In this document: positions 19,645-57,911 of the stretch, in pieces
Layout of the letters: the number at the start of each line of letters is the position of its first letter
Position numbering within the stretch: position 1 is the first letter of the stretch
Assembly: GCA_018652625.1 (NCBI GenBank)
Contig: JABIBT010000021.1
Location: forward strand, 14,502-78,501
Reading direction: 5' to 3'
Length of the DNA: 64,000 nucleotides
Origin: Candidatus Woesearchaeota archaeon
GTDB taxonomy: Archaea > Nanobdellota > Nanobdellia > SCGC-AAA011-G17 > PNOQ01
Made by a program: the position numbers and the translations under genes
Notes under the pieces: model-generated
Told to the model about the DNA's origin: nothing
Databases searched by the model: none
The model's input: the letters and a program-made list of their open reading frames with translations, nothing else

Positions 19645-21512
19645 ATAAAGAATCTTTAAAATTTGTAATTGTTGGCCATGTTGATCACGGTAAAAGTACA
19701 CTTATTGGTAGGTTATTGTATGATACAGGTTCTTTGAAAGAAGGAGTGATAGAAAAAGTTAAGAGAGTTTCAGAAGAAATTGGAAAAGAGTTTGAATATG
19801 CTTATTTATTGGATGCCTTAAAAGAAGAGCAAGAGCAGGGGATTACTATAGATACAACTAAGATTGAATTTTCTACCGATAAGAGACAATATACTATTAT
19901 TGATGCCCCGGGGCATAAAGAGTTTTTAAAAAATATGATTAGTGGTGCTTCTAATGCTGAGGCAGCTATTTTAATTGTTGATGCTGATGAAGGAGTCAGA
20001 GAACAAACTAAAAGACACGCGTATATTTTGTATTTGCTTGGAATAAAACAAGTTCATGTTATTATTAATAAAATGGATTTAGTTGATTTCTCACAAGAAA
20101 GGTATGAGGAAGTTAGAGATGAGATTAAAGATTATTTGGTGAGGTTGGAAATTTTTCCTAAAAAATATATTCCTATTTCTGCAAAATTAGGTGATAATGT
20201 TATTAAAAAATCTCCAAATATGGAATGGGGAAATAATGAAACTGTGTTGAGTGCTATTGATGATTTTGAAAAATTGGAAGGATTGGAGGATAAACCTTTA
20301 AGATTTCCAATCCAAGATATTTATAAGTTTGATGATCGAAGAATAATTTCTGGAAGAATTGAATCTGGATTTCTTGAAGTTGGACAAGAAATTAGGTTAT
20401 TGCCTTCTAATCAAAAGACAAAAGTTATCTCAATTGAACAATGGAAAGAAAAGGAAAAGAAAACTTCTTTGATGTGTGGAGAATATGCAGGAATAACCGT
20501 ATCGGATAACCATTTTTTTAAAAGAGGAGATGTTATTACTTCTCTAAATGATCTGCCTACAATTAATAATTTGTTTGGATGTAGTTTGTTTTGGATGGGA
20601 AAAAATGATTTAATTAAAGGAAAACAGTATATTTTAAAATTAAATTCCCAAGAAATTCCTTGTGAAGTTTATGAAGTCCAAGGAGTTATTGATTCTAACA
20701 CTTTAGAACAAATTCCCGGAAAAGATTTTTTATCTAAACATGATGTGGGAAATATTATTATTAAAACTAAAAAACCTATTGTTTATGATCCCTTTAACGA
20801 AATTCCTACCAACGGTAGATTTGTCCTTGTTGATGAATTACAGGTTTCTGGTGGGGGAATAATTGAGAAAAGTTCTAAAGAGATTAAGGAAAGAAGAGTA
20901 ATTGAGACCAGCAAGGAAGTTTCTGTTGTTCCAAAATCTAGTTTGATTGAACCAAAAGATAGGCATAAGAAACAAGGGCATAAGGGAAATGTGGTTTGGC
21001 TTACTGGAATTCCGGGTTGTGGAAAAGAAATGATTGCAAAAAATTTAGAAAAAGAGTTGTTTAAGAAAGGAAAATCTGTTTGCTATTTAGATGCTAGTAA
21101 TATTCGATTGACTTTAAATTCTGATTTGAATTTTTCTAAAGAATCAAGATATGAACATATAAGGAGGCTAGCAGAAGTTGCGAATATTTTATATAATCTT
21201 GGACATATTGTAATTGTTTCTGCAGTTAGTCCTTACTCTGATGGAAGAAAATATGCTAGAAGTATAATTGGAGTGGATAATTTTATAGAGGTTTTTGTTG
21301 ATATGCCATTAGATATTTGTAAAGAAATTAACCCAAGGGGAATTTATACAAAAGCAGAAAAAGGAGAGCGAAAAGGGGTCCCCGGTGTAGATATAGAATA
21401 TGAAAAATCTGATTATCTGATTCATACCCTGAATATTAATAAAAAAGAGTTTAATATATCTGAGAAAGTAACTGAATTGCTTTCTTTATTGGATAAAAAT
21501 ACCAAGTTATAA
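19641..21512 (+). CDS. cysN: Sulfate adenylyltransferase subunit 1 (GTPase) fused to a degenerate APS-kinase-like domain.
   Basis: The GTPase motifs [14 protein letters not shown] and NKMD are present. The C-terminal ~185 aa align with APS kinase, but with GIPGCGKEM in place of GLSGSGKST and [11 protein letters not shown] in place of LDGDNVRHGLN. Confidence 0.8.
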
Positions 21513-22982
21513 TTTGTTATTAGAACTATTCTTTATTTTATTTATTAAATTAGTTGTACTTTTTCCTTCCTTTAGTCTGATTAATTCTACTTCTCCACCA
21601 TGTTGTTTTACTATATCTCCTCCAACCACGCCAGATTCTTCATAATCTGAAGCTTTGACTAATTTATGAGGAATTATTTCTTTTATTAAATTCAATGGAG
21701 TGTCTTCATCAAAGAAGATAATATAATCTACGCTTTCTAAACTTGCTAATACTTCTGCTCTTTCTGCCCCGTTATTTATTGGTCTTGTTGGTCCCTTTAT
21801 CCTATTTATAGACTCATCAGTGTTCAATCCTAATATTAAGGTGTCTCCTAAGGATTTTGCTTCTTTTAGCAAGTGGGTGTGTCCTGCGTGAAGTATATCA
21901 AAACAACCATTTGTGAAAACTATTTTTTTATTGTTGTTTTTTAGTTTTTCTACTATTTCTTTTATTTCTGATAGATGTTTTATTTTTGTTTCTTGTATGC
22001 TGAAACTTTTCTTCAATTCATTTGTTGAGAGTGTGGAGGTTCCTAATTTTCCTATAACTATTCCTGCAGCGTGATTTCCAAGAATTATACTTTCATGGAG
22101 GTTTGAATTTGAAGAAATTGCTAAAGCAAGGGTTGCCATGAATGTGTCTCCTGCTCCGGAAACATCATAAATCTCTTTTGCCTTTGTTGGAAAATAGTGA
22201 GTTTCCTGTTCTTCAAATAAATATGCCCCTTTTTCTCCACACCTTAGAATTAGTTTTGTGTTGAAATTTTTGGTTATTTTTTCTCCAATTTTATTTATAT
22301 CTTTTTCTTTTGTTATTTCTTTACCTTCTTTTAAATTTGGAGAAATTATAAATGTATCTTTATAATATTCAATATTTTCTGGCTTTGGATCCACTATTAT
22401 TTTTTTATTTAATTCTTTTAATTTTGACATTAAATATGGGGTGATAATTCCTTTATTATAATCTGAGATCAAAATTATATCAAAGTTATTTTCTTTTATT
22501 TTTTCAATTATTTTATCTGCTTCTTCATCTTTTATTTCTATTATATTTTCATTGTCTATTCTGATTACTTGTTGGTTTCTAGCAATTATTCTTGTTTTTT
22601 TTATTGTTGGAATGTTTTCATTTTCTATTAGAAAATATCTTATCTCTTTGTCGTTTAGTTTTTTAATTAGAATTTCTTTTGTTTCATCTTTTCCTATTTG
22701 TCCAATTAATGTACATTTCCCCCCTAGGGAAACAATATTGTTTGCTACGTTTGCAGCTCCACCAAGCCTATGTTCCGTTTTTTGTGTGTCTAATACTGGG
22801 ACCGGTGCTTCAGGATTTATTCTGGAAACTTCTCCGATTATATACTCGTCTATCATTACGTCTCCAATAACTAAAATGTGTTTTTCTTGAAATTTATCTA
22901 TGATATTATCTATTTCTTGCATTTTATTCTGTGAAAACATTTTTCTTATATCAACGGGGCACCGAGAATTATTTATAAACAT
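21507..22982 (-). CDS. hldE: Bifunctional D-beta-D-heptose 7-phosphate kinase / D-beta-D-heptose 1-phosphate adenylyltransferase.
   Basis: The N-terminal ribokinase-like domain has [17 protein letters not shown] and DVSGAGDTF. The C-terminal cytidylyltransferase domain has [12 protein letters not shown]. The true start may be M15 (22940) or M21 (22922), and TATA-like boxes lie inside the first codons. Confidence 0.85.
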
Positions 22983-22997
22983 TATGAATCTATTTTC

Positions 22998-23567
22998 TTA
23001 AAATAAATTGTCTTCTATTAGTTTACACCAAGTGTGGATAATTGTTATGTGAGATTCTTGTATTCTAGCTGTGTTTTGAGAAGGAATTATTAAGTTGGAG
23101 TTTAAGTTTAAGTTGTTTATTTTTCCTCCGTCTTTCCCGTTTAGACAGATTGTTTTCATTCCGTTGTTTTTTGCTATTTCAAAAGCTTTTATTATGTTGT
23201 TAGAATTTCCAGAAGTGCTTATACCTACTAATACATCTCCTTCGTTTCCTAATGATTCTATTTGTTTTTTGAATACTTCTTCATATCCGAAGTCGTTTGA
23301 ACATGCTGTTAAAGTTGAAGTATCTGTTGTTAATGCAATGGCGGGTAAAGATTTTCTGTCTTTTTCAAATCTAATCAAAAGTTCTGCTGCGAAGTGTTGT
23401 GCGTCTGCTGCAGACCCGCCATTTCCACAAATTAGAATTTTTTTATTGTTTTTTAAAGAATTTATTAAAATGTTTGCTGAGTTTTCTATCTCTTTTGTTA
23501 GATTTTGTATTACTTTATTTTTTGTTTCTATTGAATCTTGAAATATTTGTTTTATAGTATCTTCCAT
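22998..23567 (-). CDS. gmhA: Phosphoheptose (sedoheptulose-7-phosphate) isomerase.
   Basis: The SIS domain motifs [16 protein letters not shown] and GISTSGNS are present. Confidence 0.85.
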
Positions 23568-24637
23568 TTTTTATTTAGTTTGTTTACCTCTTTTATTACA
23601 TCTTCAACTTGTATGTTTTTCATGTGTGGATGATTTTTACAGTTAGGAATTTTGTATTCATGTACGTTTATACATGGTTTTGAAAGTATTGGCTTATATA
23701 CATAACTATTTTTTTTGCCTAGTGGTGCAAATCTTACCGGGGTGTTTGGGCAAAATAGGCCTATTGTTGGAGTTCCTTGTGCTGCTGCTATGTGCATTGG
23801 TCCAGTGTCAGAACTGATCATAAGGTTTAGTTTAGAAGTTAGAGCCAATGTCTTTTTTAATTCTATATTAGTTGTATTGGCTGTATTTAGATAATTTAAT
23901 TTCTTTTGAAATGATTCAATTATATCTTTTTCACTTGGAGATCCGATAATTATAAAAGTAGGATTATATTTTTTTATTAATTCTTTAGAAAGTTCTAACC
24001 ATTTGTTCATTGGCCACCTTCTTGAGGTTCCAGTCCCTCCAGTTGTTATGCATAGTCCGATTAATGGTTTTTTTAGAACTTTAGAGTTTGCCCAGTTTAT
24101 TGAGTCATTTCCAGGATTTAATTCTGTCAATTCTGTCAATTTGTCTTGAGGTACCTTTAATGTGTTTGTTAGTTTTATGAAGTTGTCTGCTGAGTGTATT
24201 TTATCGTTGAATTTTATTTTTTTTGTGTAGAGGAAAGCAGCTTTTTTTTGTTTGTAACCTATTGAGTTCTTTGCTAACCAAAATGAAAAGAAACTTCCTA
24301 AGTTCATGAAAGGTTCTGTGTCTATAGCTAAATCAAACTTTTTAAACATAAGAAATAATTTTAAGTTGAATGTTTTTATTTCGTCTATGAACTCTTGATT
24401 TTCAAATAGTATTTTGTTTTGAGTAGTGCATATTACTGTTATTTTTGAGTTTGGATATTTTTCTTTTATTCTTTTTATCATTGGTAATGTTAGAATTGAT
24501 TCTCCAAGTGACCAAAATCTTATTATTGCTATGTTTTTTATTTTCTTTTTTGCTTTGAATATTTTTAGAATAGATAAAAAGTAGCATAGTATTAAAATTA
24601 AATACTTATCTGTTATTTTTGCTAGTTTTACTTTCAT
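23552..24637 (-). CDS. Glycosyltransferase family 9 (heptosyltransferase-like).
   Basis: [21 protein letters not shown] is the characteristic GT9 C-terminal motif. It lies in the operon with gmhA and hldE. Confidence 0.75.
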
Positions 24638-24941
24638 TTTTTATTGCAACTGTTCTTATTATTTTTGTTATTTTTTTCTCGGTATCTTCAAGCTTTGCGT
24701 ATAGTCTAAATATCATATAAGAGAGTACTATTAATGTTGCGTAGATACTCAAATAAATACCAGATGAAACTCCTAGGATTTCTGCTAGTTTGATAACGAA
24801 AGTTGGGTAGATTGCTGCAGCCATAACCCCTAACCAAAAAACCATCCAGAACATAGATTCTAGTCTGTTTTTTATATTTAGTATAACTCTACTAAATGCA
24901 AATAAAGCGAAAATTAATATTATGATTTGTATGAAGTCCAT
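24606..24941 (-). CDS. Small membrane protein, DUF2304-like, the usual partner of the upstream GT2.
   Basis: It is 111 aa with three or four TM segments and a charged C-terminal helix. The GT2 plus DUF2304 pairing is recalled from bacterial and archaeal glycan loci. Confidence 0.5.
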   Translation of the reverse strand: MDFIQIIILIFALFAFSRVILNIKNRLESMFWMVFWLGVMAAAIYPTFVIKLAEILGVSSGIYLSIYATLIVLSYMIFRLYAKLEDTEKKITKIIRTVAIKNESKTSKNNR

Positions 24942-24944: not shown

Positions 24945-25625
24945 TTAGGTTCCCATTTTTTTGAATATCATTTTTAGTAATATTTGTATTGCGTCAAATC
25001 TACCTTGGCCCTTTCTTCCTTCTTTTAAGTGTCTTTCTTCATAGATAATATTTACTGGGATTTCTTTGTATCTGACTTTGTTCTTTTTTATTTTTTCAAG
25101 TATTTCTGAAGCGTGTTCCATTTTGTCTGTTGTCATTATTGTTTTCTTTGCTCCTTCTCTTGAGAATGCCCTGAATCCATTGTGTACATCTGTTAGTTTT
25201 ATGTGATACATTACCCAAATTAGGAATATGCCTCCCTTTAAAACAATTTTTCTTTTTAGTGGCATTTTTTGTTTACTTAGAAATCTTGATCCTAAACAAG
25301 CTTCAAAATTTTCATTTTTTATTGGTGCTAAGAGTTTTTCTATTTCGTCAGGATTGTGTTGTCCATCTGAATCGAAGTGGATTATATACTCTGCGTTATT
25401 TAATAGGGCGTAAGTCATTCCAGTTTGCAGTGCTGCCCCTTGTCCCCTGTTGATTATGTGTTTTAATGCTGTTACATTCTTTGATTTGGCTACTTCGTAA
25501 GTTTTGTCTGTTGATCCATCATCTACTACAACAATATTATTGTATCCTCTTTCTTTTAGGTTGTCTAATACCTGGCCCAAGTATTTTTCTTCGTTTAAGG
25601 CAGGTATTACTATAAATGTACTCAT
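24945..25625 (-). CDS. Glycosyltransferase family 2.
   Basis: FIVIPALNEEKYL, VVVDDGSTDKT and FDSDGQH are present. Confidence 0.8.
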   Translation of the reverse strand: MSTFIVIPALNEEKYLGQVLDNLKERGYNNIVVVDDGSTDKTYEVAKSKNVTALKHIINRGQGAALQTGMTYALLNNAEYIIHFDSDGQHNPDEIEKLLAPIKNENFEACLGSRFLSKQKMPLKRKIVLKGGIFLIWVMYHIKLTDVHNGFRAFSREGAKKTIMTTDKMEHASEILEKIKKNKVRYKEIPVNIIYEERHLKEGRKGQGRFDAIQILLKMIFKKMGT

Positions 25626-25692: not shown

Positions 25693-27165
25693 TTAGTGTG
25701 GTGCGGCCATAAAAAAGATGTCCGGGATGTGTGGATTTAAGACATTTATTATTTTTGAAGCTCTGTTGTTTGTTTCATCTATTTCTTCGATTATGTTGTA
25801 TCTGTCTACAATTACTATTATTTCATGTTCTCCTGGCGAAGTTACTGTCCAAGGGATTATTACTACTTCTGTTTGTAAACCTTCTATGGACATTTCTATC
25901 TCTCCAAGTATAGAGTGTGTTCTCATATCATAAAAGAAAACTGTGAAATTTTCTGCTGTAAGATTTTCTATGTTTCTTACCATAGCAAAAATTTGTATAT
26001 TGTCTCCAGGTTTTGGGTGATTGTTGCTAAATCCTATATCTTGATCTCTTATTCTTAAATCTGGAAGAGTAAATACACTAATTGGTTTGAATGCTATATT
26101 GTTTTCTTCGTTTTCTTCATTTATTTGGTCATCTGCATCAACCCACACGTGTATATCGTAGTCTCCTTCTATTTCTGGAATCCATTCTAGTTGTGCGAAG
26201 AAAGTACTTCTGTCTTTTATTTGAACTAGGTCTTCTCCAAGATATGTTTCTTCAGATGGTTCTCCAGAGTAGAATCTTACTAAAATTTGTTCTGGATCTT
26301 CATCTAGAAGGTTTTTGAAAAAAGCAGTTATTGTTACCGGTGTTCCTTTCATAATTGAATCATTGCTAAAAATAATATCTTCTGAAGTTATTTCGAAATC
26401 TGCGTTTATATTTATTTGAAATGGATAAGCCAATCCTTCATTATTATTGTATAATTCCAGAATTTCTTCTTCTGATAATGCTCTGTGCCATACTCCCATT
26501 TCATCAAGATCGCTGTTTAAATATTCTCCGATTGATTGTAGTAGTCCAATCGTTGTTTCTGTATTATGGGTGTGCATTGATGTGGCATATTCAAAATTTA
26601 TTGTTTCGTCGACTCCATCAAGATATATTTTTCCTGTATCCTCCCCGGCCCAAGTAATAACAACATGGTGCCATTGATTATTAGAATAAAAATCGGGACC
26701 TTTATTGTTTCCAGTATCGGCAATGACATAATTATCATTATTTGCCCAAGATCCAAAATTTATTTTTTCATTTAATTGATTTGGGTAAATTAATCTAAAT
26801 GTCCATTGGTTTTGGCTTCCAGAATAACATGAAATTATTGTTTGTAATGGGGTAGAACTGTCCATTTTAATCCAAGTTGAAATAGAAAAACTTTCTGCAC
26901 CAAGCAGCAGATTTTCTGGTATTATTATATAATCTTGACTCCCATCGAAATGAAATGCTTCACCAATTACCCCGCTGGCTCCGGTTGTAACCCCCGTCAT
27001 TAATCCGGTATGGTTGTTATCCGATAAGTCATAAATTGTATCTCCAGAGATATGCGAGTCATCAAAAGAATAATACATTTCTAGATCATCTATCAGTTCT
27101 GCGTTGACGTTGTTTATAGAAATCATGAATAAGGCCAAAATTATGATTAAAATCTTGTATTTCAT
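25693..27165 (-). CDS. Secreted LamG (concanavalin-like lectin) domain protein with two CARDB-like domains.
   Basis: There is a signal peptide. The LamG_3 pattern is YYSFDDS ... DLSDNNHTG ... AFHFDGSQDYIII ... WHHVVITW ... DEMGVWHRALSEEEILELYN. The CARDB-like E-x-N-E-x-NN motifs are NEENEENNIAF and EIDETNNRAS. Confidence 0.7.
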   Translation of the reverse strand: MKYKILIIILALFMISINNVNAELIDDLEMYYSFDDSHISGDTIYDLSDNNHTGLMTGVTTGASGVIGEAFHFDGSQDYIIIPENLLLGAESFSISTWIKMDSSTPLQTIISCYSGSQNQWTFRLIYPNQLNEKINFGSWANNDNYVIADTGNNKGPDFYSNNQWHHVVITWAGEDTGKIYLDGVDETINFEYATSMHTHNTETTIGLLQSIGEYLNSDLDEMGVWHRALSEEEILELYNNNEGLAYPFQININADFEITSEDIIFSNDSIMKGTPVTITAFFKNLLDEDPEQILVRFYSGEPSEETYLGEDLVQIKDRSTFFAQLEWIPEIEGDYDIHVWVDADDQINEENEENNIAFKPISVFTLPDLRIRDQDIGFSNNHPKPGDNIQIFAMVRNIENLTAENFTVFFYDMRTHSILGEIEMSIEGLQTEVVIIPWTVTSPGEHEIIVIVDRYNIIEEIDETNNRASKIINVLNPHIPDIFFMAAPH

Positions 27166-49243: not shown

Positions 49244-49754
49244 ATTAAATATTGGATGTGGAAAAGATTCTAAGCCAGGTTATTATAATGTTGATTTGAT
49301 TAAATTTGATGGTGTTGATAAGGTTTTAGATTTGGATAAATTCCCATATGATTTACCTTCTGATCATTTTGATGAAATCTATTGTAAGTCTGTTTTACAA
49401 TGTGTAAAAAATCCAACTGAAGTTGTGAGTGAATTTCATAGATTATTGAAGAAAGGAGGAAGACTATACTTTGATGTTCCACATTTTAGTTCTAAAAACT
49501 GTTGGAAGGACATAACTCATAGAAGAGGATATGCGTTTCACTCTTTTGATATTTTTATGGATAATAATTTTTATGTAAGTGGTGCCAAGGTTTCTTTTTC
49601 TAGGATGAAAAGAAAATTATTTTTTGGTAAAAAGTATGCTATTTGGAATTATTTAATTGAACCATTGGCAAATAAGTATCCTAACTTATATGAAGATACT
49701 TGTTTAAGGGCTTTGTTTCCTGGTTTAGTTTTGAAAATTGAGTTTATTAAGTAA
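49227..49754 (+). CDS. SAM-dependent methyltransferase (Methyltransf_11-like).
   Basis: LNIGCG ... NVD ... LKKGGRLYF are present. Confidence 0.55.
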   Translation: MEIPTKLNIGCGKDSKPGYYNVDLIKFDGVDKVLDLDKFPYDLPSDHFDEIYCKSVLQCVKNPTEVVSEFHRLLKKGGRLYFDVPHFSSKNCWKDITHRRGYAFHSFDIFMDNNFYVSGAKVSFSRMKRKLFFGKKYAIWNYLIEPLANKYPNLYEDTCLRALFPGLVLKIEFIK

Positions 49755-50970
49755 AATTTTCTTTAAATCTCTTATAGAAAATATTGAAGTTAAACTCTTT
49801 TTTTACTCTATTTTGTGCTTTTTTTGTTAATTTATCAAATGATTTTTTATCTGTTTTATATTTTACAAATAACTCTTCGAAGGTGTTTTTTATTTTCAAT
49901 TTGTTTCTTCTGTTAACTAGAATTCCATCTTCCCCGTCTTTTATTAGTTCTGGAGGTCCTCCATTATCTGAAGCTACTACAAAACATCTTGAACCCATTG
50001 ACTCTAAAATTGTCAAAGGTCCGCCAGTTTCTTTATCTCCTAGAAATGAGAATACGTTTGCTGAGTTAAATAAATCGTATAGCACTTCATCTGGAATGAA
50101 TCCTAGGACATGTATATTTTTTGCTTTTTTACTTATGTCCTTTATTTGATCATATAATTCTCCTTTTCCACCAATTAATAATTTTACATTTGGCATATTT
50201 CTTAACTCTCTTGTTGCAGCCATTAATTCTAGAATACCTTTACTCTTTTCTAATCTAGACTGAGATAGAATAATAAAATCGCCTTCTTTTAAATCTAAGT
50301 TGAATTCTTTGTTTATTATTTCTCTTGAGGCCTTTTTGCTTTTCTTAGACAATTTTTTTGTATCTATGTACATTTGTAATCCGTTATACGCATCTTTTCT
50401 ATTGTAAATTGTGTTTGTCTGATGTGCTACGTATGCAGATAGAGTTATTATTTTATGTGTCTTTTTTTCAACTATGAATCTATCTATCTTTCTCCAATTA
50501 TTTAGAAATTTTGAATATAATCCAAATTTTTTATCTTTTACATCTGTTGGTATGAAATTTGCCTTTACTTGTTCATTGTAGTAGAGAATCCTATCTGGTT
50601 CAAACGATATGAAATATATCTTGTTTTTTAATTTTTTTAGTTTGAGCATTTCATATACAATTAAAGAACCTGGAAAATTAGTAAATACTATCTTATCATC
50701 TTCTTTTAATGTCATTAATATTCTTTCTGCCAATAGTTTAGAATAAGCTCTTATTTTTGGATTTACTTTGAAACCGAGTAAATTACTCAAAGGAATGTTT
50801 TTTACCCTTAAATGAAAGAAATTGTCTACCGTTTCATCTAGATCTGGTTCAAAGAGTGTAAATATTTTAGAATCTATTTTATTTTTTAGTAATGTCCCAT
50901 GTATATCTAACATTACTTTTTCTGCTCCGCCATATACATTGAATAATGGATGAATAAAGATGTAACCCAT
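49747..50970 (-). CDS. Glycosyltransferase family 4.
   Basis: ETGGPLTILESMGSRCFVVASDNGGPPELI is present. Confidence 0.7.
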   Translation of the reverse strand: MGYIFIHPLFNVYGGAEKVMLDIHGTLLKNKIDSKIFTLFEPDLDETVDNFFHLRVKNIPLSNLLGFKVNPKIRAYSKLLAERILMTLKEDDKIVFTNFPGSLIVYEMLKLKKLKNKIYFISFEPDRILYYNEQVKANFIPTDVKDKKFGLYSKFLNNWRKIDRFIVEKKTHKIITLSAYVAHQTNTIYNRKDAYNGLQMYIDTKKLSKKSKKASREIINKEFNLDLKEGDFIILSQSRLEKSKGILELMAATRELRNMPNVKLLIGGKGELYDQIKDISKKAKNIHVLGFIPDEVLYDLFNSANVFSFLGDKETGGPLTILESMGSRCFVVASDNGGPPELIKDGEDGILVNRRNKLKIKNTFEELFVKYKTDKKSFDKLTKKAQNRVKKEFNFNIFYKRFKENFT

Positions 50971-51015: not shown

Positions 51016-52020
51016 TCATTTGATAGATTTTATTACTTCTTTTACAGTTATTGATTTTATTGGGTTTATTCTTTTATTTGTTATGTTTCCATATATGTCA
51101 TATGTTGGCCTTTTTAGCTTCCAGTAATACTTGGAACCTTTATTTAATGGTGCCAGTACCTTTGGATTTGTTGGCCCAAAAAGACTTATTATTTTATTGT
51201 TTACTGCAGACGCAATATGCATTGGGCCAGAATCATTTGTTAATACAATATTTGCTTTTCTCATTATTTCTGCTGTTTCATGCAAGGTAGTGTTTCCTAT
51301 TAGAGAAAGAACTTTGATTTTACTTAGTATTTTTTTCTCTATTTTTTTATCTGTTTCCCCACCTAAAAGGATTATTTTATACTTTAATCTTAGTTTTTTT
51401 ATTAATTCTATATAATTTTCTGTTGGCCAAACTTTTAGAGAAAGTCTTTGTCCTATATTCTGCCCTCCGCCTGGACAGATTACTAACACTTTTTTGCTTT
51501 TCAATTTATTGTCTTTCCAGAATTTATTTGCAAAAACTTTATCTTCTTCTGTTGGAAAAACCCCCATCTTTGTGTCTTTATAGTCTACTGGGTTTATTTT
51601 ATTTAATAATTCTAAATATGCTAGAATATCATGCTTGTTTTGAAAATAATCAACTTTTTTTGTTAGGAAAATTCCATCTTTTTTTAGTCTATTAAATCCT
51701 ATTCTTGTTTTTATACTGGTTAATTTTGCTGTCAAATTGAATATTTTATGTTTATCTAGTACAAATATTAAATCATAGTTTTGTTTTTTTATATTTCTTG
51801 TTAGTTTTAGCCATCTTAAGATTCTTTTATTTGTTATTATTCTTTCATTGAATTTAATTATTTTATCAATATTTTTGTTATTCTTTAAAATTTGAGATGA
51901 AGATTCTCCAACTAAGTAATGTATTTTTGCTTTTGGAAATGCTTTTCTTGTTTGTTTGACTAATGGAGTAGTCATTAAAACATCTCCAATTGCTCCCATC
52001 TTAAAAAATAAAATTTTCAT
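51016..52020 (-). CDS. Glycosyltransferase family 9 (heptosyltransferase-like), second copy.
   Basis: TNDSGPMHIASAVNNKIISLFGPTNP and the N-terminal GAIGDVLMTTP are present. Confidence 0.75.
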   Translation of the reverse strand: MKILFFKMGAIGDVLMTTPLVKQTRKAFPKAKIHYLVGESSSQILKNNKNIDKIIKFNERIITNKRILRWLKLTRNIKKQNYDLIFVLDKHKIFNLTAKLTSIKTRIGFNRLKKDGIFLTKKVDYFQNKHDILAYLELLNKINPVDYKDTKMGVFPTEEDKVFANKFWKDNKLKSKKVLVICPGGGQNIGQRLSLKVWPTENYIELIKKLRLKYKIILLGGETDKKIEKKILSKIKVLSLIGNTTLHETAEIMRKANIVLTNDSGPMHIASAVNNKIISLFGPTNPKVLAPLNKGSKYYWKLKRPTYDIYGNITNKRINPIKSITVKEVIKSIK

Positions 52021-52063: not shown

Positions 52064-52384
52064 TTAGCTTACTATTAGTATGATTCCTAGTATTATAGAA
52101 ATTACACCAAGTATTTCCTTTGTTTTTACTTTTTCTTTTAGAATGTATTTTGATAATAAAACGGTCCAAACGTAAACTAGAGAAGTTATTGGATATATTA
52201 TTGAAAGATTTCCGAATCTTAAAGCCAAGACTCCAAAAATAAGCCCAGCTCCAAATATAAGAGCTATGAGAATTAAATTTTTCATTAATTTTTTTCTTAA
52301 CATACTAACTTTAAGGAAAAGCATACTTAAGGCTCCAAAAATGCTTCCTATTAATGCCAAATACAATCCGGTGAAACTTATCAT
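52064..52384 (-). CDS. Four-TM EamA/SMR-like half transporter (ArnE/ArnF-like).
   Basis: The start is set at ATG 52384 (MISFTGLYLALIGSIFG), which forms an ATGA overlap with the upstream paralog. It is about 106 aa with 4 TM segments. Confidence 0.55.
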   Translation of the reverse strand: MISFTGLYLALIGSIFGALSMLFLKVSMLRKKLMKNLILIALIFGAGLIFGVLALRFGNLSIIYPITSLVYVWTVLLSKYILKEKVKTKEILGVISIILGIILIVS

Positions 52385-52719
52385 TTTTTGTATAAAATTA
52401 AAGTTATACCTCCCATTATTAATAAAAAACCAAAAATGTTGAACATACTTATTGTTTCTCCTAAGATAAAATAAGAGATAAGATAAATCCAAATTAGACT
52501 TAGAGAAACTATGGGATATGTTTTTGACAGATACTCATTTCTTAATGAAACAATAAAGAAAAATGTAGCTATGCCATATAGAATTAAACCTAGGTAAAGA
52601 TATGGGCTTAAAATAGAATCGTAGATTGTTTTATCGGTCATACTTATCTTAAACATAAGTTGTGCAAACGCTATGAATAAGGAAGCCAATATTGCTATTA
52701 AGATATTATTCTTTTTCAT
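52381..52719 (-). CDS. Four-TM EamA/SMR-like half transporter (ArnE/ArnF-like).
   Basis: It is 112 aa with 4 TM segments, is a paralog of the downstream gene, and overlaps the upstream GT-C-like gene by 4 nt. Confidence 0.55.
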   Translation of the reverse strand: MKKNNILIAILASLFIAFAQLMFKISMTDKTIYDSILSPYLYLGLILYGIATFFFIVSLRNEYLSKTYPIVSLSLIWIYLISYFILGETISMFNIFGFLLIMGGITLILYKK

Positions 52720-54521
52720 TTTACTTCATAAATTCTAGATAATATTTGTCCATCTTTTTCGTAATTCCAAACTTCTTCTAAATGGTCATCCAACGATTCA
52801 TCCCATAAAGTTTCAAAACTATTTCTTTTTGGTAGAATAAATAATAAATCGAATTTTTTATATTCCTCTCCTTGGAGTGTTGGATCTACCCAGGTGTGTT
52901 GATTAAAATATGTAATTTCATTTGAATCTAGGAAATCTCTGTTTTCTGGAGTATCAAAGATAAGTAATGGATCAAATCTATCTACTATTTGTCCTTTATC
53001 ATCTAACCTGTATTCTGTTGTTATCCAGTCTCCGCTCCAAAAGAGATATTTTATTTTAAATTTTTCAATGTAATGTTGCCTTAGTTCTTCATTGTTACTA
53101 TACAGAATTATTGCTGCCGCCTTTACTCTTTCCTCCATGTCTAAGAAAGGATCGTTTTGAGCACGTCTGCTTACTAATACTTTTCTTCCAGTAAGGCCGT
53201 TTAGTGCAAAGCTTAATTCATTGCTGCTTAGAAAAACATCATTTACATCTGTGTTTTCTATTATGTATTCACTCATTGCTTCTAAATTTTCTGGAAGAGG
53301 GTTTCTACCTTGCTTTGCCCACATGTTCTCTTGAGAATACTCATTGAATGCCATTAGATTTAATGGAAGTAATAGTAAAATCAAAAGAAATGGGATTATA
53401 TTTTTCTTTATTTTTACTTTTTTTAAAATGAGGGTTAAACTCAACCCTATGAAAATGGTTTTTACTATTGGGATGAAAAAATCAGACATTCTTGTTGGAT
53501 AAAAATCTACTCCAATTAGGGGTCTTGTTATGAAAAAATGAAACAATCCAATTATTGCCGAGATTAAAAATACATTAATATATCTTGTAAGAGTATTCTC
53601 TTTTTTTATCAAAAATAAAGTTAGTATTCCTAGTATACAGAGTAATGATACGATTATATTTGATATTCCTGAAAAATTAAAGAATAATCCCTTGAATACG
53701 CCAACTACAAAGTCCTTTTGTGTTTCCCCATTGCTAAAATCTTTATTATTCCAGTCCAAATAGTTTTCATTTGTTTGTCCGTGATGTACAAAAATTGGTT
53801 TGAACCAATAAAGCTGTGCAATTATTAATCCTATAAGAATTAATATTCCAAATACTTTCAGGAATTTTATCATTGCTTTTTTATTTTTCAAGTTTCTGAA
53901 TATTCCAAAATAAAGAGTAGATACTCCAATTAAAATTGTTGAAGAGATAAAAGAAACTCCGTGGGAGATAGCACTTATTCCGTATATTATTCCGGTTAGA
54001 ACTGCATATTTGTAACTTTTTGTTTTTATTGTGTATAATAATGATATAAACACTAATGGCATGATGATAAAGGAGGTAAATGGAGTATACTTCATAATCA
54101 TTGAACTTTTTACTCCTAAAATTAAGAGAACTGTTGCTATCGCTATAAGTTTATTTTTGAATAATTTATAACTTACAAAAAATAGTGTAAGAAATGATAA
54201 TATTGAAAAAAGTACTGACATGGACAACATTGCAGTTATTCCACTTAAAAAAAATATATTTGAGAAAACTGCTACAAGTAAGGCATAGAATGGAAGGTAC
54301 CCTGGAAGTCCTTCTAGAACATTTGACCCTCCGAAAATATCTCCCCCATATTTTATATGGTTAATTCCTCCAAGTTGGTAATAATAATCTCCCCCATAGA
54401 TTGGACTGGGTAATTGATTTAAGCTTAATAGAAAAGGGATTATAACAGCAACATACAATACTATGCAAAGAATTAACAAATAGTTTATTTTATCTTTATT
54501 AAACTTATCAAGTATTTTCAT
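52716..54521 (-). CDS. Polytopic GT-C-like membrane protein (putative ArnT/AglS/PMT-like lipid-phosphate-sugar-dependent glycosyltransferase).
   Basis: It is 601 aa with about 12 TM helices and then a soluble C-terminal domain of ~200 aa. The first loop contains acidic and aromatic residues (GGDYYYQLGG). It sits between a Dpm1/ArnC-like GT2 and the EamA pair. Confidence 0.45.
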   Translation of the reverse strand: MKILDKFNKDKINYLLILCIVLYVAVIIPFLLSLNQLPSPIYGGDYYYQLGGINHIKYGGDIFGGSNVLEGLPGYLPFYALLVAVFSNIFFLSGITAMLSMSVLFSILSFLTLFFVSYKLFKNKLIAIATVLLILGVKSSMIMKYTPFTSFIIMPLVFISLLYTIKTKSYKYAVLTGIIYGISAISHGVSFISSTILIGVSTLYFGIFRNLKNKKAMIKFLKVFGILILIGLIIAQLYWFKPIFVHHGQTNENYLDWNNKDFSNGETQKDFVVGVFKGLFFNFSGISNIIVSLLCILGILTLFLIKKENTLTRYINVFLISAIIGLFHFFITRPLIGVDFYPTRMSDFFIPIVKTIFIGLSLTLILKKVKIKKNIIPFLLILLLLPLNLMAFNEYSQENMWAKQGRNPLPENLEAMSEYIIENTDVNDVFLSSNELSFALNGLTGRKVLVSRRAQNDPFLDMEERVKAAAIILYSNNEELRQHYIEKFKIKYLFWSGDWITTEYRLDDKGQIVDRFDPLLIFDTPENRDFLDSNEITYFNQHTWVDPTLQGEEYKKFDLLFILPKRNSFETLWDESLDDHLEEVWNYEKDGQILSRIYEVK

Positions 54522-54522: not shown

Positions 54523-55395
54523 TTATAATTTGGTTCTTTTTATTATTAAATCTGCTATTAATGCCAATACCATTATCTGAAGACCCGTTAAAAATATCAT
54601 TATTGTTCCTGCCCCCACAGAGTTTTGAGTAACGAAATCTATACTTCCTTTTATGATACTAGAAATTAATAAAGCTAACCCCAATGGAGTAAATATTTTT
54701 AATGGATTAAAATACATAACTATCTTGAAGACTAGACTAATAAAACCTACAAAATCTCTTATTGGACTAATTGTTGATTTTCCTTCTCTTTTGAAATATT
54801 GTATTGGGATAAACATAACTGAATAATTGTTTACCATACTAGATACAGTTATTGTTGATGTAAAAGAAAATCCATTTGGAAATAAGTTCCAAAACCTTAA
54901 TGCTATATCTTTTTTGAATATTCTCAAACCAGAATTTATATCTGGGATTTTTTTACCAGTTAGGAATTCTGCTAGTTTTTTTATCATCCATTTAGCCGGT
55001 TTCCTTATTGTCGGTGCTTTAGATCCTTTTTTTGTTCTAGCACCAATGACCATATCACAAATCTTTGTATATTTTATTAATTTTTTTAAATCTTCAATTG
55101 GGTAAGTACCGTCTGCATCGGTTATTGCAATCCATTCTCCTTTTGCTTTTTTAATTCCAGTTTTTAATGAAGCTCCATATCCTTTGTTTCTTATGTGCCT
55201 CAAGTAAACTATTCCTTTCACATCTTTTAGAATTTTGTGAGAATTATCTTTTGAACCGTCATTAACTATGACTATCTCCGATTTTAATTTTATTCCCTTT
55301 AACGTTTCTTTTATTCTAATTATAGTATCTACAATTGATTTTTCTTCGTTGTATACGGGAACAACTACAGATAAATTTACCATTTTACTTTCCAA
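54523..55395 (-). CDS. GT2 polyprenyl-phosphate glycosyltransferase (Dpm1/ArnC/GtrB/AglD-like) with two C-terminal TM helices.
   Basis: VVVPVYNEEKSI, VNDGSKDNS and TDADGTYP are present, followed by the C-terminal TM pair. Confidence 0.8.
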   Translation of the reverse strand: MESKMVNLSVVVPVYNEEKSIVDTIIRIKETLKGIKLKSEIVIVNDGSKDNSHKILKDVKGIVYLRHIRNKGYGASLKTGIKKAKGEWIAITDADGTYPIEDLKKLIKYTKICDMVIGARTKKGSKAPTIRKPAKWMIKKLAEFLTGKKIPDINSGLRIFKKDIALRFWNLFPNGFSFTSTITVSSMVNNYSVMFIPIQYFKREGKSTISPIRDFVGFISLVFKIVMYFNPLKIFTPLGLALLISSIIKGSIDFVTQNSVGAGTIMIFLTGLQIMVLALIADLIIKRTKL

Positions 55396-57911
55396 ATATA
55401 GATGTTAAAACCATCCATTCCAGTTTCGTGGTGGAATAATTCAAACCTATTTAAGTTTTTTCCTTCATAAAAGTATAATTCTGTGAACATACTTCCTAGT
55501 AGCTCTGGATTCATCATCATAATTTGGGAATTATGTGGGAAATAAGCTGCTGCAGTATCTGCTACTGGATTTTCTGAGAGATATATATTTTCGTCGTCTC
55601 TATAGTCTAGAAAAATTTCTTCTCCTTCAGTAGTTTGTGCTTTGGCTATTCTTTTATTTTGATCTATGATTATTCCATTGCTACAATAGAATGTGTTATT
55701 TTGGTTTTGGCAACTTCCAATTCCAGAGTATCCAGGGTATGGAGCAATCCATTGATTTGCATCTTCTTCCGAGATACCTTTTAATTGTCTATAGGTTCTT
55801 TCTGCCTCTTCTTGAGAATATTCTAACCTATCCATTAGTATCTCCAATGCCTCTTCTTTTGGATTGGATTTGATTGTAGTATAAGCAAATGCTCTTTTGA
55901 AATCCCAGGAACCGAAATGTGCCCAAACTGCTGATTTTGATACCATATCTTGAGAGGTTATGAAATAATTTTCTGGAGGATTACAATGTGTTTTTTCTAA
56001 TATTCTATTAGGATTTTCAACATATTCTGATAATGTGTTTCTTGCAGTGTTTTCATCCTCTAAAATTATTCTATCAATTATTTCTTTTGTTAATAATGGG
56101 TCTTGTGTCTCTTCCAGCAAAAAATCATATGCATCATTAGCTCCACAATCTAACATCCTTAATATTGCAATTGCTTCTTCTTCATTATCTGTTAAAAGTA
56201 TTTTTCCCATCCAGTGGGCTTGTGGATTGTTTTGGGATGCCCCATCAAAAGTTACTTTTCTGTCTGCTATGGCTTTAAACCAATGCCCAAAATCCCACCA
56301 AGAATTTACTATAGCGTCCTCTGGTGTTTCTCTTTCTATTTTTGTTAGTGAATCATACCAAGCATCATTCATTGATGGTGCTTCCCTAATTGCCGTTTCA
56401 TTTGCAGATTTGGTTAATGGGACAAAACTTACTACAGTGAGTAATATGAGACATATCGAAAGAAGTTTTTTGCTAAGATCTAACTCTTTGGACGCCCATT
56501 CAATAATTAATGTGTATGCCTTTCCGAAGAAAATTCCTAAGCCTATTGCAAATACTGGAACCATAAACATAACGAATCTTACTCCCTTTGTCGTAGTATA
56601 TAATGTTACTATTGCCCATAGGATTAATAAGATTCCATATTTTATATCAAGTTGAACTTTTTTCTTTTTTAGAAATACAAAAAGTATACCTATTACAGCT
56701 ATTGCTACAAGTATTTTTCCTCCAAGTTGAGAAACAACACTACTCATAGAAATTTTGTTTAGTTCTGCTACTGTAGTATAAACATTTGGCCAAAGTGTTT
56801 TTTTGGCTGCTTCTTTTATGAATATTATGCTTGCTGGAGCTTCAAGAAATTTAAAGAAAGCTCTAAATCTCCCCATAAAAATGGACACAAATAATGCAGA
56901 GGACAATAAGTATATTGCTCCTGTTTTTATTAAATTTTTTGTTTTCAATTTTTTAAATATGTTTTTATGATACTTTATTAATAGATAAATGAAATAAACC
57001 CCCATTCCTGCCAAGATTATATCAAACATATACCACCACCCACTCCATGCGAATGAGAATATGCCGGTTAGTAATCCAGTTGATACTCCCAATATATATC
57101 TAGATTTATTAGTTTTAGCGGTGAATGTTTCCATAAATAACCAAATTAAAATTGATGAAAAGAAAATGCCATATGCATCTGTGTCTGCAAATCCTGCTGG
57201 AGTCCTTCCTAAAAAGGCGGGATGAATTGCTAATACGAATGCAGCTACCACGCCCCCAAGATTCCCGGATACTTTTCTTGCTATGAAGAAGATAGGGATA
57301 ACCGATAGTGTTGCAAAAAGTAGTGGGAGTATAAACATAGTTTTCATTAATGAATCATTTCCAAAGATGCTACTTATTTTATGAAGTATTGCTCCAGCAA
57401 AAGGATGAAAACTGTTACTTACTGGTTTTCCATTTGGAGCGTACATGTGATTGTTGAATGGTTGGCCATCTCTTATTTCATCACCAACATGTCCATTTTC
57501 TAATACATTTTTAGTTTGTCTGTAATAGTAATATGGATCTATTGCTAAGAGGTAAGTTTGACCAGAATCATCTTTATAATAATTTTTTAGTTGTTGTGAA
57601 ACTTGTTCTGTTTGATCGGTTATGGCTTGTTGGTTTGAACTAATGAACGCCTGGTACCTTTGACTTGTTAATATATCTAATGTGTTTTGATCAATGTCCC
57701 GGGTTTGGGACATTATCTCTGACTGTATTTGATTTTTTATGTTTCTTTCCATAGATTCTTCTGCTAGTTTGTCGGTCATTGGAAGATCATAGGTGTATGC
57801 TCTAAAGAAAATTGCAAAGAAAATAGGGATAATTAAAAGAAGAACAATGTAATATTTTTTGATGAACTTCTTTATCTTTTTAGTATCATATCTTATATCT
57901 ATCTCTTCCAT
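55377..57911 (-). CDS. aglB: Archaeal oligosaccharyltransferase (STT3 homolog).
   Basis: It is 844 aa with 13 or so N-terminal TM helices. The catalytic WWDFGHW (WWDYG) motif is present, followed by a soluble C-terminal domain. Confidence 0.9.
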   Translation of the reverse strand: MEEIDIRYDTKKIKKFIKKYYIVLLLIIPIFFAIFFRAYTYDLPMTDKLAEESMERNIKNQIQSEIMSQTRDIDQNTLDILTSQRYQAFISSNQQAITDQTEQVSQQLKNYYKDDSGQTYLLAIDPYYYYRQTKNVLENGHVGDEIRDGQPFNNHMYAPNGKPVSNSFHPFAGAILHKISSIFGNDSLMKTMFILPLLFATLSVIPIFFIARKVSGNLGGVVAAFVLAIHPAFLGRTPAGFADTDAYGIFFSSILIWLFMETFTAKTNKSRYILGVSTGLLTGIFSFAWSGWWYMFDIILAGMGVYFIYLLIKYHKNIFKKLKTKNLIKTGAIYLLSSALFVSIFMGRFRAFFKFLEAPASIIFIKEAAKKTLWPNVYTTVAELNKISMSSVVSQLGGKILVAIAVIGILFVFLKKKKVQLDIKYGILLILWAIVTLYTTTKGVRFVMFMVPVFAIGLGIFFGKAYTLIIEWASKELDLSKKLLSICLILLTVVSFVPLTKSANETAIREAPSMNDAWYDSLTKIERETPEDAIVNSWWDFGHWFKAIADRKVTFDGASQNNPQAHWMGKILLTDNEEEAIAILRMLDCGANDAYDFLLEETQDPLLTKEIIDRIILEDENTARNTLSEYVENPNRILEKTHCNPPENYFITSQDMVSKSAVWAHFGSWDFKRAFAYTTIKSNPKEEALEILMDRLEYSQEEAERTYRQLKGISEEDANQWIAPYPGYSGIGSCQNQNNTFYCSNGIIIDQNKRIAKAQTTEGEEIFLDYRDDENIYLSENPVADTAAAYFPHNSQIMMMNPELLGSMFTELYFYEGKNLNRFELFHHETGMDGFNIYIWKVKW

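Follow-up and report, generated by a model that had tools for sequence, protein, structure and literature searches.

A ~36-kb run of glycan genes (positions 21,507-57,911) in 64 kb of Candidatus Woesearchaeota archaeon DNA from contig JABIBT010000021.1 (the whole 64,000-nucleotide stretch is referred to here as the window) is probably an N-glycosylation (agl) island, in which a conserved scaffold beside the oligosaccharyltransferase gene aglB has been diversified by cassette exchange. We assign this reading a probability of roughly 0.6. We scanned every open reading frame (ORF) of at least 100 amino acids (aa) in the window with Pfam, and most ORFs of the locus also with NCBIfam. A first-pass annotation had described a ~36-kb glycan locus beside aglB, and both scans bear out its gene content at these positions. 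It had counted about 35 glycan-related genes; the region does hold 36 non-overlapping ORFs of at least 100 aa, in 11 blocks of alternating strand, but only ~30 have a domain that belongs directly to a glycan pathway, the LamG/CARDB and SpoIIM-like proteins and two proteins named u301 and u146 having none.

The donor-pathway genes were recovered as annotated: GmhA and HldE; NeuC, NeuB and NeuA-like; Gmd with DegT and a Nudix protein; and CysC with a Sulfotransfer_1 protein, with CysQ, CysD and CysN-CysC just upstream. So were two GT9, three GT4, two GT2 and one KpsS-like transferase (by Pfam; GT, glycosyltransferase), a polysaccharide deacetylase, an APH-like kinase, a Wzx-like flippase, aglB and an AsnB-family gene directly after the locus. 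Three methyltransferase domains were detected rather than the four annotated, and the supposed Maf/DUF115 protein has an MptE-like match of 30.9 bits, below the Pfam cutoff of 34.6, that covers 37 residues. Overlooked earlier were a GT-C enzyme, an ArnE/F-like pair, a DUF2304 partner of the PpgS-like GT2 and two thymidylate-kinase-like (TMK-like) proteins. The genes nearest to aglB in function or position, including those for heptose, are as follows (TM, transmembrane).

55377-57911, minus strand: AglB oligosaccharyltransferase (PF02516, STT3-PglB core domain, 171 bits; WWDFG at residue 538)
54523-55395, minus strand: GT2b, AglJ-like (Pfam)
52716-54521, minus strand: u601, GT-C glycosyltransferase of 601 aa with ~11 TM helices (AlphaFold 2 and Foldseek)
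52064-52719, minus strand: two ArnE/F-like 4-TM proteins (best NCBIfam models ArnE and ArnF, weak)
51016-52020, minus strand: GT9b (PF01075)
28147-29622, plus strand: Wzx/MOP-family flippase, AglR-like role (Polysacc_synt and MurJ; ~11 TM)
24945-25625, minus strand: GT2a, PpgS/AglJ-like polyprenyl-phosphate sugar synthase (PF00535; best NCBIfam model PpgS, 158.8 bits, under cutoff)
24606-24941, minus strand: DUF2304 small membrane partner of GT2a (PF10066)
23552-24637, minus strand: GT9a, heptosyltransferase family, with a hydrophobic N-terminal segment (PF01075, 95 bits)
22998-23567, minus strand: GmhA, sedoheptulose-7-phosphate isomerase (SIS_2; TIGR00441 214.9 bits, above the cutoff of 209.45)
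21507-22982, minus strand: HldE, bifunctional heptose-7-phosphate kinase/heptose-1-phosphate adenylyltransferase (PfkB and CTP_transf_like)

Host and integrity of the locus

Among GTDB species genomes, relatives of the window's AglB are nearly all from Woesearchaeota or Nanoarchaeota, the best match being 91% identical, and in NCBI the window's own proteins bear the name 'Candidatus Woesearchaeota archaeon'. Judged by these matches, the organism is a Woesearchaeota (DPANN) archaeon. The locus could in principle have arisen by chimeric assembly, or by the joining of contaminating bacterial sequence to archaeal DNA: the best-characterised homologues of many of its genes are bacterial, and the closest named relatives of its sulfotransferase outside Woesearchaeota are from bacteria of the candidate phyla radiation (CPR). 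However, the window is AT-rich (GC 0.27-0.39) with no break, GC at third codon positions is 0.16-0.27 across all 59 genes, and tetranucleotide usage in the locus correlates with that in the flanks at r = 0.987. Archaeal genes lie on both sides, with PCNA, RpoL, TFS and ScpB upstream on the contig and SecD/SecF and Trm56 downstream of the locus. The exact AglB protein was found on contigs in 42 blocks of the collection and the exact NeuB in 37; around NeuB, 18 of 24 contigs have the same neighbour genes as the first, and gene order agrees at the other sites listed. Many independent contigs show that order, in assemblies from ENA, NCBI, JGI and Logan (NCBI JABHWC010000004.1 is one of the contigs), and the gene set is syntenic in other Woesearchaeota metagenome-assembled genomes (MAGs). 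A chimera, for which a composition break had been named as the sign to look for, is thus effectively refuted.

There is no tRNA at the island's left boundary, and no long terminal repeats flank the island. The sole tRNA in the window, a tRNA-Ser (CGA) at 60139-60221, lies just past AsnB, ~2.2 kb beyond the end of aglB.

A conserved scaffold with exchangeable modules

We compared all window proteins by tblastn with the aglB loci of 80 related species, taking up to 10 kb of flank at each. The resulting counts are lower bounds, many of the contigs ending early.

AglJ-like GT2: 69 of 80 loci
PpgS-like GT2: 64 of 80 loci
GT9a: 26 of 80 loci
DUF2304: 21 of 80 loci
HldE: 14 of 80 loci
GT-C enzyme (u601): 11 of 80 loci
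GmhA: 7 of 80 loci
Any heptose-related gene (GT9, HldE or GmhA): 27 of 80 loci

The first-pass annotation had written of bacterial-type transfers, for which we find no compositional signal. Since the heptose/GT9 module is widespread beside aglB (27 of the 80 species loci), it looks like an old trait of the lineage more than a recent import; recent bacterial transfer is unsupported.

The earlier idea of a 'super-locus' is strengthened by a divergent relative, contig CAYFOF010000007.1 (30.9 kb, GC 0.29), which carries the same gene set beside aglB: 27 of the window's genes including AsnB, largely collinear with the window and ending at the contig's own aglB. Its order is SpoIIM, Wzx, GT4a, NeuB, NeuA, deacetylase, methyltransferase, KpsS-like, NeuC, Gmd and two TMK-like genes; then MT3, GT4b, MT2, a GT4, GT9b, HldD, HldE, GmhB, GmhA and GT9a; then DUF2304, GT2a, GT-C, EamA, AsnB, GT2b and AglB. 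Most of the shared proteins are 46-67% identical to those of the window; NeuB, DUF2304 and EamA are at 30-38%; for SpoIIM and one GT4 the correspondence is at the level of the Pfam family only. Missing from this contig are the sulfotransferase, CysC, DegT, Nudix, APH and MptE-like genes. We had entertained the possibility that the 25-kb middle block of the island is an insertion specific to the window lineage, as it is absent within 10 kb of aglB in relatives, but CAYFOF010000007.1 carries the block just farther out.

Closer relatives carry cassette-swapped versions, as the comparison of locus variability proposed with the first-pass annotation brings out. In the sister species represented by locus L097, most proteins are 85-97% identical to those of the window and the sulfotransferase 59%, and the methyltransferase MT1 and u301 are replaced by a cassette encoding a methyltransferase, a DUF5989 protein, an SGNH esterase, a carbamoyltransferase and a NUMOD3 protein. 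In L098, which represents a third lineage, we found the deacetylase/sulfotransferase/KpsS-like trio, CysC, u301, one TMK-like gene and Gmd, and also the carbamoyltransferase cassette. Across these two relatives the sulfotransferase is at 59-61% identity, among neighbours at 85-97%. The trio is therefore conserved in three lineages (window, L097 and L098). The genes concerned that have no other section here are listed below.

39982-40731, plus strand: MT1 methyltransferase, inside the cassette 39655-40823
40876-41781, plus strand: u301, no known family (no Pfam match)
41785-43197, plus strand: TMK-like 1, NTP_transf_5-like and thymidylate-kinase-like (TMK domain by Pfam/NCBIfam)
43154-44497, plus strand: TMK-like 2, same architecture (TMK domain by Pfam/NCBIfam)

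MT1 is bracketed by two 100% identical 30-nucleotide direct repeats (repeat family D8), at 39655-39684 and 40794-40823. The 30-mer reads TTTTTATAGTTTATGATTTTGTTTTCTATT and contains a TATA-like TTTATA. In L098, which lacks MT1, a single identical 30-mer (16492-16521) lies in the 101-bp spacer between CysC and u301. Judged by this empty site, the repeats are the footprint of cassette gain or loss. The 30-mer may also be a regulatory element, because it is 100% conserved across lineages whose proteins are only 61-93% identical. On the basis of the gene set shared among relatives, the cassette swaps and the MT1 footprint, we view the island as a conserved backbone whose decoration modules can be exchanged, similar in this to an O-antigen or capsule locus.

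The tandem TMK-like proteins (447-470 aa) belong to this island repertoire. In the AlphaFold 2 model (pLDDT 88.7) the C-terminal half resembles dTMP kinases, with a target-normalised TM-score of 0.72. Only 40 homologues were found; they carry PF14907 and PF02223, and lie in glycan loci in every lineage examined (L093/L094, L095, L096, L097 and L098). STT3/aglB is in the same stretch as the TMK-like gene in L095 and L096; in L093/L094 the locus extends along its contig as far as aglB. These proteins might phosphorylate or nucleotidylate a glycan substituent. In L095 and L096, which are more distant, the TMK-like gene stands beside Epimerase_2/TagB-like proteins, with CDP-alcohol phosphatidyltransferase genes nearby. 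L095 also has an aglB-adjacent set (5515-9856, GC 0.30) of a PEP-utilizer/cytidylyltransferase fusion, a Peptidase_C26 glutamine amidotransferase and an NTP_transferase, which resembles the Campylobacter Cj1418-Cj1416 phosphoramidate pathway, with FkbH and acyl carrier protein genes and a NeuA-NeuB fusion nearby. A phosphoramidate role (as for Campylobacter MeOPN) for the window's CysC and TMK-like proteins was rejected, the Cj1416-1418-like genes of L095 not being in the window.

Heptose genes and GT9 transferases

GmhA and HldE match bacterial equivalog models over nearly their full length. HldE scores 477 bits with NF008454 (cutoff 521) and 192.6 with the rfaE domain II model TIGR02199 (cutoff 181.5). 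The ADP-heptose donor pathway of the first-pass annotation is present in part: GmhA and HldE are encoded, but GmhB and HldD were not found in the window. Because these two are missing, the heptose branch, if active, would be expected to yield D,D-heptose. In CAYFOF010000007.1 the HldD scores 328.7 bits with TIGR02197, above the cutoff of 274.6, and the GmhB 175.5 against a cutoff of 178, with HAD-IIIA models above cutoff. A HAD protein in the window (16292-16936) was considered as GmhB and ruled out, being HAD-IA/PpaX-like.

An arginine of HldE termed 'STTR5' predicts synthesis of CDP- or UDP-heptose (PMC11461863). It gave no clear prediction here: relative to L470, the start of the LKEGKSTT motif (residues 470-477), position -5 is Val and the Arg is at -1. 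Val presumably also occupies position -5 from the motif start in E. coli HldE.

Both GT9 proteins score under every equivalog cutoff of NCBIfam. No lipid A or 3-deoxy-D-manno-octulosonic acid (Kdo) genes are present in the window. Given this lack of lipid A/Kdo machinery, and the position of the genes beside aglB in an archaeon, we infer that the heptose acceptor would be a dolichol-linked glycan. Extending this beyond the window is tentative, and we hold the odds to be somewhat against it: Woesearchaeota and allied Nanoarchaeota might build a heptose-containing core on the dolichol-linked N-glycan precursor, with swappable decoration cassettes around that core, the GT9 enzymes drawing on a GmhA/HldE/GmhB(/HldD) pathway whose genes are linked to aglB. 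If so, the core would be an archaeal counterpart of the lipopolysaccharide (LPS) inner core and a new acceptor class for GT9 heptosyltransferases, and around it there would be a serotype-like swapping of nonulosonic acid, sulfate, carbamoyl, methyl and amino-sugar cassettes, perhaps driven by viruses or hosts.

Nonulosonic acid, GDP-sugar and modification genes

The middle of the island encodes enzymes for a nonulosonic acid (NulO) and a GDP-linked amino sugar, with transferases and modifying enzymes.

29605-30714, minus strand: GT4a (Glycos_transf_1 and Glyco_transf_4)
30761-31822, minus strand: NeuB (NCBIfam NeuB model 275 bits, PseI model 233, both under cutoff)
31829-32989, plus strand: APH-like kinase (Pfam)
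32955-33746, plus strand: weak MptE-like (Maf/DUF115) protein, sub-threshold as given above
33743-34459, minus strand: NeuA-like CMP-NulO synthetase, a cytidylyltransferase (best model PseF, 160 bits, under cutoff)
34461-35615, minus strand: NeuC, hydrolysing UDP-GlcNAc 2-epimerase (TIGR03568 407 bits, cutoff 236)
35710-36624, plus strand: polysaccharide deacetylase (Pfam)
37568-38977, minus strand: KpsS-like (Capsule_synth) candidate CMP-ulosonic-acid transferase, 469 aa (Pfam)
44486-45487, minus strand: GT4b (Pfam)
45484-46107, minus strand: methyltransferase MT2 (Pfam)
46194-47240, plus strand: Gmd, GDP-mannose 4,6-dehydratase (PF16363 421 bits; TIGR01472 411.8 against a cutoff of 415; LegB only 96)
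47240-47680, plus strand: u146, no known family (no Pfam match)
47682-48137, plus strand: Nudix protein (Pfam; best NCBIfam model GDP-mannose mannosyl hydrolase)
48089-49243, plus strand: DegT aminotransferase (Pfam DegT 412 bits; best NCBIfam model 'LegC family', 370 against a cutoff of 420)
49227-49754, plus strand: MT3, short methyltransferase (Pfam)
49747-50970, minus strand: GT4c (Pfam)

NeuC implies a manno-configured nonulosonic precursor of the neuraminic (Neu) or legionaminic (Leg) type, not of the pseudaminic (Pse) type. The presence of NeuC in the window therefore points to a Neu- or Leg-type (manno-derived) rather than a Pse-type acid. A legionaminic reading of Gmd and DegT, as LegB- and LegC-like enzymes, is not favoured, Gmd scoring 412 bits with its own model and 96 with LegB, and no PglD/LegH acetyltransferase being present. 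For u146 and u301 there was no Pfam match even at E <= 5 and no sequence match in the PDB.

The best NCBIfam models for the KpsS-like protein are the BFO_1060 family and KpsS, at 33 bits (cutoff 200) and 30 bits (cutoff 600). BFO_1060 is a homologue of the Tannerella forsythia Pse/Leg (nonulosonic-acid) transferase (PMC5420450). Because both models describe enzymes that use CMP-ulosonic acids, and because an E-H-P motif (residues 320-322) is invariant in four lineages, we regard the KpsS-like protein as a candidate nonulosonic-acid transferase. A metagenome scan with this protein returned one 2.7-kb locus only.

Sulfation genes

At the family level, the window holds a full set for sulfation from 3'-phosphoadenosine-5'-phosphosulfate (PAPS), comprising CysD, CysN-CysC, CysC, a CysQ-like protein and a Sulfotransfer_1 protein (APS, adenosine-5'-phosphosulfate).

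17820-18641, plus strand: CysQ (Inositol_P; TIGR01331 162.6 bits, under cutoff)
18625-19437, plus strand: CysD (PAPS_reduct; NF003587 350 bits, above cutoff)
19626-21512, plus strand: CysN-CysC fusion (GTP_EFTU and APS_kinase; apsK domain 165.8 bits, above the cutoff of 138.7)
36639-37571, plus strand: sulfotransferase, Sulfotransfer_1, PAPS-type (PF00685 96 bits)
39052-39633, minus strand: stand-alone APS kinase CysC (PF01583 225 bits; NF003013 277, above the cutoff of 163)

The CysQ, CysD and CysN-CysC genes, and possibly CysC, might instead serve ordinary assimilatory sulfate activation, their position beside the island being coincidental. CysDN and CysC are standard assimilation enzymes and are scored as such by NCBIfam, and their genes lie outside the block that is shared with CAYFOF010000007.1, a contig with neither the sulfotransferase nor CysC. 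We nevertheless consider an assimilatory role highly improbable. No PAPS/APS reductase or sulfite reductase is encoded in the window, the protein with a PAPS_reduct domain being CysD; the stand-alone CysC lies ~1.5 kb, one gene, away from the sulfotransferase inside the island; this pairing recurs in L097 and L098; and CysQ removes 3'-phosphoadenosine-5'-phosphate (PAP), as a sulfotransferase needs.

The counterpart of the sulfotransferase in L097 (1717-2625), the 59%-identical protein mentioned above, has neighbours at 85-97%; this divergence suggests allele replacement or diversifying selection. Outside Woesearchaeota, the closest named homologues of the sulfotransferase are from CPR bacteria (Parcubacteria, Sungbacteria) and Omnitrophica.

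A putative second transfer route and candidate acceptors

PpgS, AglJ and ArnC are the NCBIfam models that fit GT2a and GT2b best, the top scores, with AglJ or PpgS, being 106-159 bits (cutoffs 325-370). A PF00953 or PglC-type enzyme was not found in the window. The AlphaFold model of u601 has a pLDDT of 93 and a pTM of 0.92. Every significant Foldseek match in the PDB is a GT-C enzyme (STT3, PglB, AglB, AftA or DPY19), with E values of 7e-11 to 1e-9 to STT3 and AftA and TM-scores up to 0.62. Its homologues bear the name 'glycosyltransferase family 39' or have a PMT_2 domain, u601 itself having no Pfam match; u601 has no WWDxG motif, and has an invariant Asp (D45) in a first-loop 'PSPxYGGDYY'. 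On its predicted structure, u601 qualifies as a GT-C-fold glycosyltransferase. Together, the GT2, the DUF2304 protein, the ArnE/F-like pair and u601 look like a set that makes a polyprenyl-phosphate sugar, flips it and transfers the sugar outside. The Wzx-like flippase has weak NCBIfam matches to the Wzx of O-glycosylation and to MurJ; it, the three GT4 and the two GT9 genes all lie within 30 kb of aglB.

Two surface proteins encoded upstream of the island are likely acceptors, to judge by their sequons.

11169-12476, minus strand: candidate acceptor glycoprotein, 435 aa (N-terminal signal/TM segment, C-terminal TM anchor, 24 N-X-S/T sequons)
5882-7975, plus strand: S-layer-like protein (PF05124 S_layer_C, 34 bits; 12 sequons)

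The 435-aa protein, which the first-pass annotation had called sequon-dense, is truly enriched: its 24 sequons compare with 9.4 +/- 2.6 in shuffled sequences, none of 2000 shuffles reaching 24. For the S-layer-like protein the 12 sequons compare with 7.1 +/- 2.3, and 3.4% of shuffles reached 12. Pilins had also been named as targets, which does not fit the small proteins with an N-terminal TM segment, as these carry 0-1 sequon each. Six such ORFs (138-276 aa; 3454-5663 and 8047-9178) flank the S-layer-like gene; all lack a family match and have one hydrophobic segment, at the N-terminus, with a pilin-like or class III signal peptide appearance. Upstream of them is a 1247-aa protein with no family match, its start cut by the window edge. 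A 391-aa protein (9975-11147) adjoining the sequon-dense protein has a marginal Epimerase_2 match (E = 0.015).

A model of the pathway, and one glycan or several

In the pathway that we propose for the N-glycosylation island, NeuC, NeuB and NeuA would supply a cytoplasmic CMP-nonulosonic acid of the Neu/Leg (manno-derived) type, and Gmd with DegT a GDP-4-amino-4,6-dideoxyhexose. PAPS would be made in the cytoplasm by CysD/CysN-CysC and CysC, with CysQ clearing PAP. An AglJ/PpgS-like GT2 would charge dolichyl phosphate, and at the cytoplasmic face the three GT4, the two GT9 and the KpsS-like enzyme would lengthen the lipid-linked oligosaccharide, which the methyltransferases, sulfotransferase and deacetylase would decorate and Wzx would flip. 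AglB would then transfer the glycan to Asn residues in sequons of surface proteins, such as the 11.2-12.5 kb protein and the S-layer-like protein. By a second route, a GT2 would make a polyprenyl-phosphate monosaccharide, the ArnE/F-like pair would flip it, and u601 would add the sugar outside the membrane. The analysis itself shows which families the genes belong to, that their setting is archaeal and not chimeric, that the gene set beside aglB is conserved and that cassettes vary; from gene content we infer the donor identities beyond the family level, the acceptors, the order of steps and the choice between one glycan and several.

Several observations weigh against this model. No genes for the supply of GDP-mannose, UDP-GlcNAc or sedoheptulose-7-phosphate lie within the window, nor do ManB/ManC or GlmU-type precursor genes. 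Tblastn with an E. coli GmhB query found no GmhB in the window at E <= 10, while 11 of the relatives' loci were matched; Pfam scans found no HldD-type short-chain dehydrogenase/reductase in the 64-kb window; and ~6.5 kb of contig upstream holds no further heptose gene. The heptose route would thus need a phosphatase encoded elsewhere. GT9 enzymes are known to act on lipid A-Kdo or on proteins, and none is known for dolichol-linked glycans. Neither Pfam nor NCBIfam matched any known sialyltransferase family in the window, the only candidates being the weakly matched KpsS/BFO_1060-like protein and the sub-threshold MptE-like protein, and the assignment of the NulO transferase draws on the weak 33-bit match and the HP motif. 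The alternating-strand blocks make co-regulation not evident, and Wzx and the KpsS-like enzyme would equally fit a separate polymer.

This last point leads to the alternative that the island serves at least two separate glycoconjugates: an N-glycan core, made with AglB, the two GT2, the GT-C enzyme, GT9 and the heptose genes, and a second product, for which the KpsS-like enzyme and Wzx would work together with the NulO, sulfate and amino-sugar genes. This second product might be a polymer, capsule-like or lipid-anchored, or else a modification, O-linked or of the pilin/archaellin type, made via the MptE-like protein. Most relatives hold only core genes within 10 kb of aglB, with NeuB in 1 of the 80 loci and NeuC, the sulfotransferase and the KpsS-like gene in none; Capsule_synth enzymes and Wzx are typically found in capsule and O-antigen systems; the window does encode a weak MptE/Maf-like protein; and the alternating strands suggest independent units. 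Nevertheless, in CAYFOF010000007.1 the NulO, KpsS-like, TMK-like, GT4, GT9, heptose and aglB genes form an unbroken ~30 kb in largely the same order as in the window. Pfam scans found no Wzy polymerase, Wzz, Kps ABC transporter or phosphoglycosyltransferase in the window, and the MptE-like match is sub-threshold in a protein that CAYFOF010000007.1 lacks. On balance we consider separate products unlikely, if far from negligible, and favour an island whose genes serve N-glycosylation.

Neighbouring genes

Three further genes lie within or directly after the island.

25693-27165, minus strand: secreted or anchored LamG and CARDB protein, no evident glycan function (Pfam)
27245-28096, plus strand: SpoIIM-like 7-TM protein, no evident glycan function (Pfam)
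58066-60006, plus strand: AsnB-family glutamine amidotransferase (Asn_synthase and GATase_7; TIGR01536 510 bits, above cutoff)

In two relatives SpoIIM again marks the edge of this gene block, beside Wzx in L093 and beside GT4a in L098, and AsnB lies inside the aglB cluster in the relative L014. Two AglB paralogues occur in one relative (L008 and L014; MAG ERP019367_co1_57): the copy on the SecD/SecF side is 59% identical to the window's AglB, and that in the heptose/NulO island 50%. In the window aglB is present once, with SecDF on one side and the island on the other.

A free-standing LAGLIDADG endonuclease-like ORF (9238-9873) lies in the surface-protein region; together with the NUMOD3 ORF of L097 (7978-8808) it may be a trace of mobile DNA. 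Between that region and the cys genes is an archaeal AMP-salvage set (12517-17727) of AMP phosphorylase, a form III-like RuBisCO and ribose-1,5-bisphosphate isomerase, interleaved with genes for an AI-2E transporter and a HAD-IA phosphatase.

Significance and comparison with known systems

Episymbiotic DPANN cells rely on surface contact with other microbes, and the island is a concrete, conserved set of surface genes, with aglB and GT9/heptose genes in about one-third of related species and with swappable cassettes. Because relatives share the island in shuffled versions, the cells probably wear a complex, fast-diversifying sugar coat; a role in host mimicry or attachment is speculation. The analysis nominates three testable kinds of enzyme: GT9 proteins whose acceptor would not be LPS, the PAPS sulfotransferase encoded within an aglB island, and the KpsS-like candidate NulO transferase. 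By itself the island does not open a long-standing question, its basis being MAG gene content and each sugar class having an archaeal precedent.

The combination had been described as uncharacterised in archaea. The N-glycan of Thermoplasma acidophilum contains a heptose, that of Halorubrum sp. PV6 contains legionaminic acid, and sulfated sugars occur in Halobacterium and Haloferax N-glycans (PMC11407970). Archaeal heptose-biosynthetic enzymes are functional, according to a commentary on Tang et al. (PMC11461863), and the nanohaloarchaeon Ca. Nanohalococcus occultus expresses sialic-acid genes, with a published host-mimicry proposal (PMC10266531). The individual components, heptose, legionaminic acid, sulfate and sialic-acid genes, thus have precedents, and what stands of the description is that the combination and its DPANN host are new. 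In the open-access literature we found no report that connects Woesearchaeota to heptose genes or to GT9 beside aglB, and in the searchable literature no structurally described DPANN surface glycan. What is new is the combination, the DPANN host, the recurrent linkage of aglB with GT9 and heptose genes, and the cassette dynamics; the principle is not.

In the bacterial LPS inner-core system, heptose is made by GmhA, HldE, GmhB and HldD and transferred by the GT9 enzymes WaaC and WaaF. The window is alike in GmhA, HldE and two GT9, and the divergent copy in CAYFOF010000007.1 has all four biosynthetic enzymes. Unlike the bacterial system, the window lacks lipid A/Kdo machinery, GmhB and HldD, and its genes stand beside aglB.

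ArnC/ArnE-ArnF/ArnT and the mycobacterial PpgS-Rv3632-Rv3779 each consist of a polyprenyl-phosphate sugar synthase, a small membrane partner or flippase and a GT-C transferase. The window resembles them in its GT2, DUF2304 partner, ArnE/ArnF-like pair and GT-C-fold enzyme, but its matches are all under the family cutoffs, and its GT-C enzyme is a family of its own without WWDxG.

The best NCBIfam families of the KpsS-like protein are those of Tannerella Tanf_01245/BFO_1060 and of the beta-Kdo transferases KpsS/KpsC, two families whose donors are CMP-ulosonic acids (PMC5420450), and it has an invariant HP motif. Its scores against those families are very weak, as given above. Halorubrum sp. PV6 and Ca. 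Nanohalococcus occultus likewise have archaeal NeuC/NeuB/NeuA-type genes tied to surface glycosylation (PMC11407970, PMC10266531). In contrast to these, the window has no LegB-type dehydratase or PglD/LegH-type acetyltransferase, and its genes lie inside a conserved aglB island rather than a horizontally acquired one.

Glycosylation genes clustered with aglB are standard in Haloferax and other archaea. The agl system of Haloferax volcanii includes AglB, the Dol-P-hexose synthases AglJ and AglD, the flippase AglR and the extracytoplasmic mannosyltransferase AglS. The island shares with it the clustering of aglB with glycosyltransferase genes, an AglJ-type GT2 and a MOP-family flippase (PMC11407970), as well as S-layer and surface targets and a polyprenyl-phosphate sugar route with an extracellular-acting membrane glycosyltransferase, here predicted. 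In contrast to Haloferax volcanii, the sugars predicted from the genes of the window are heptose, a nonulosonic acid and a 4-amino-6-deoxyhexose, with a PAPS sulfotransferase and GT9 enzymes, and the island is far larger, more mosaic and carried by a DPANN host.

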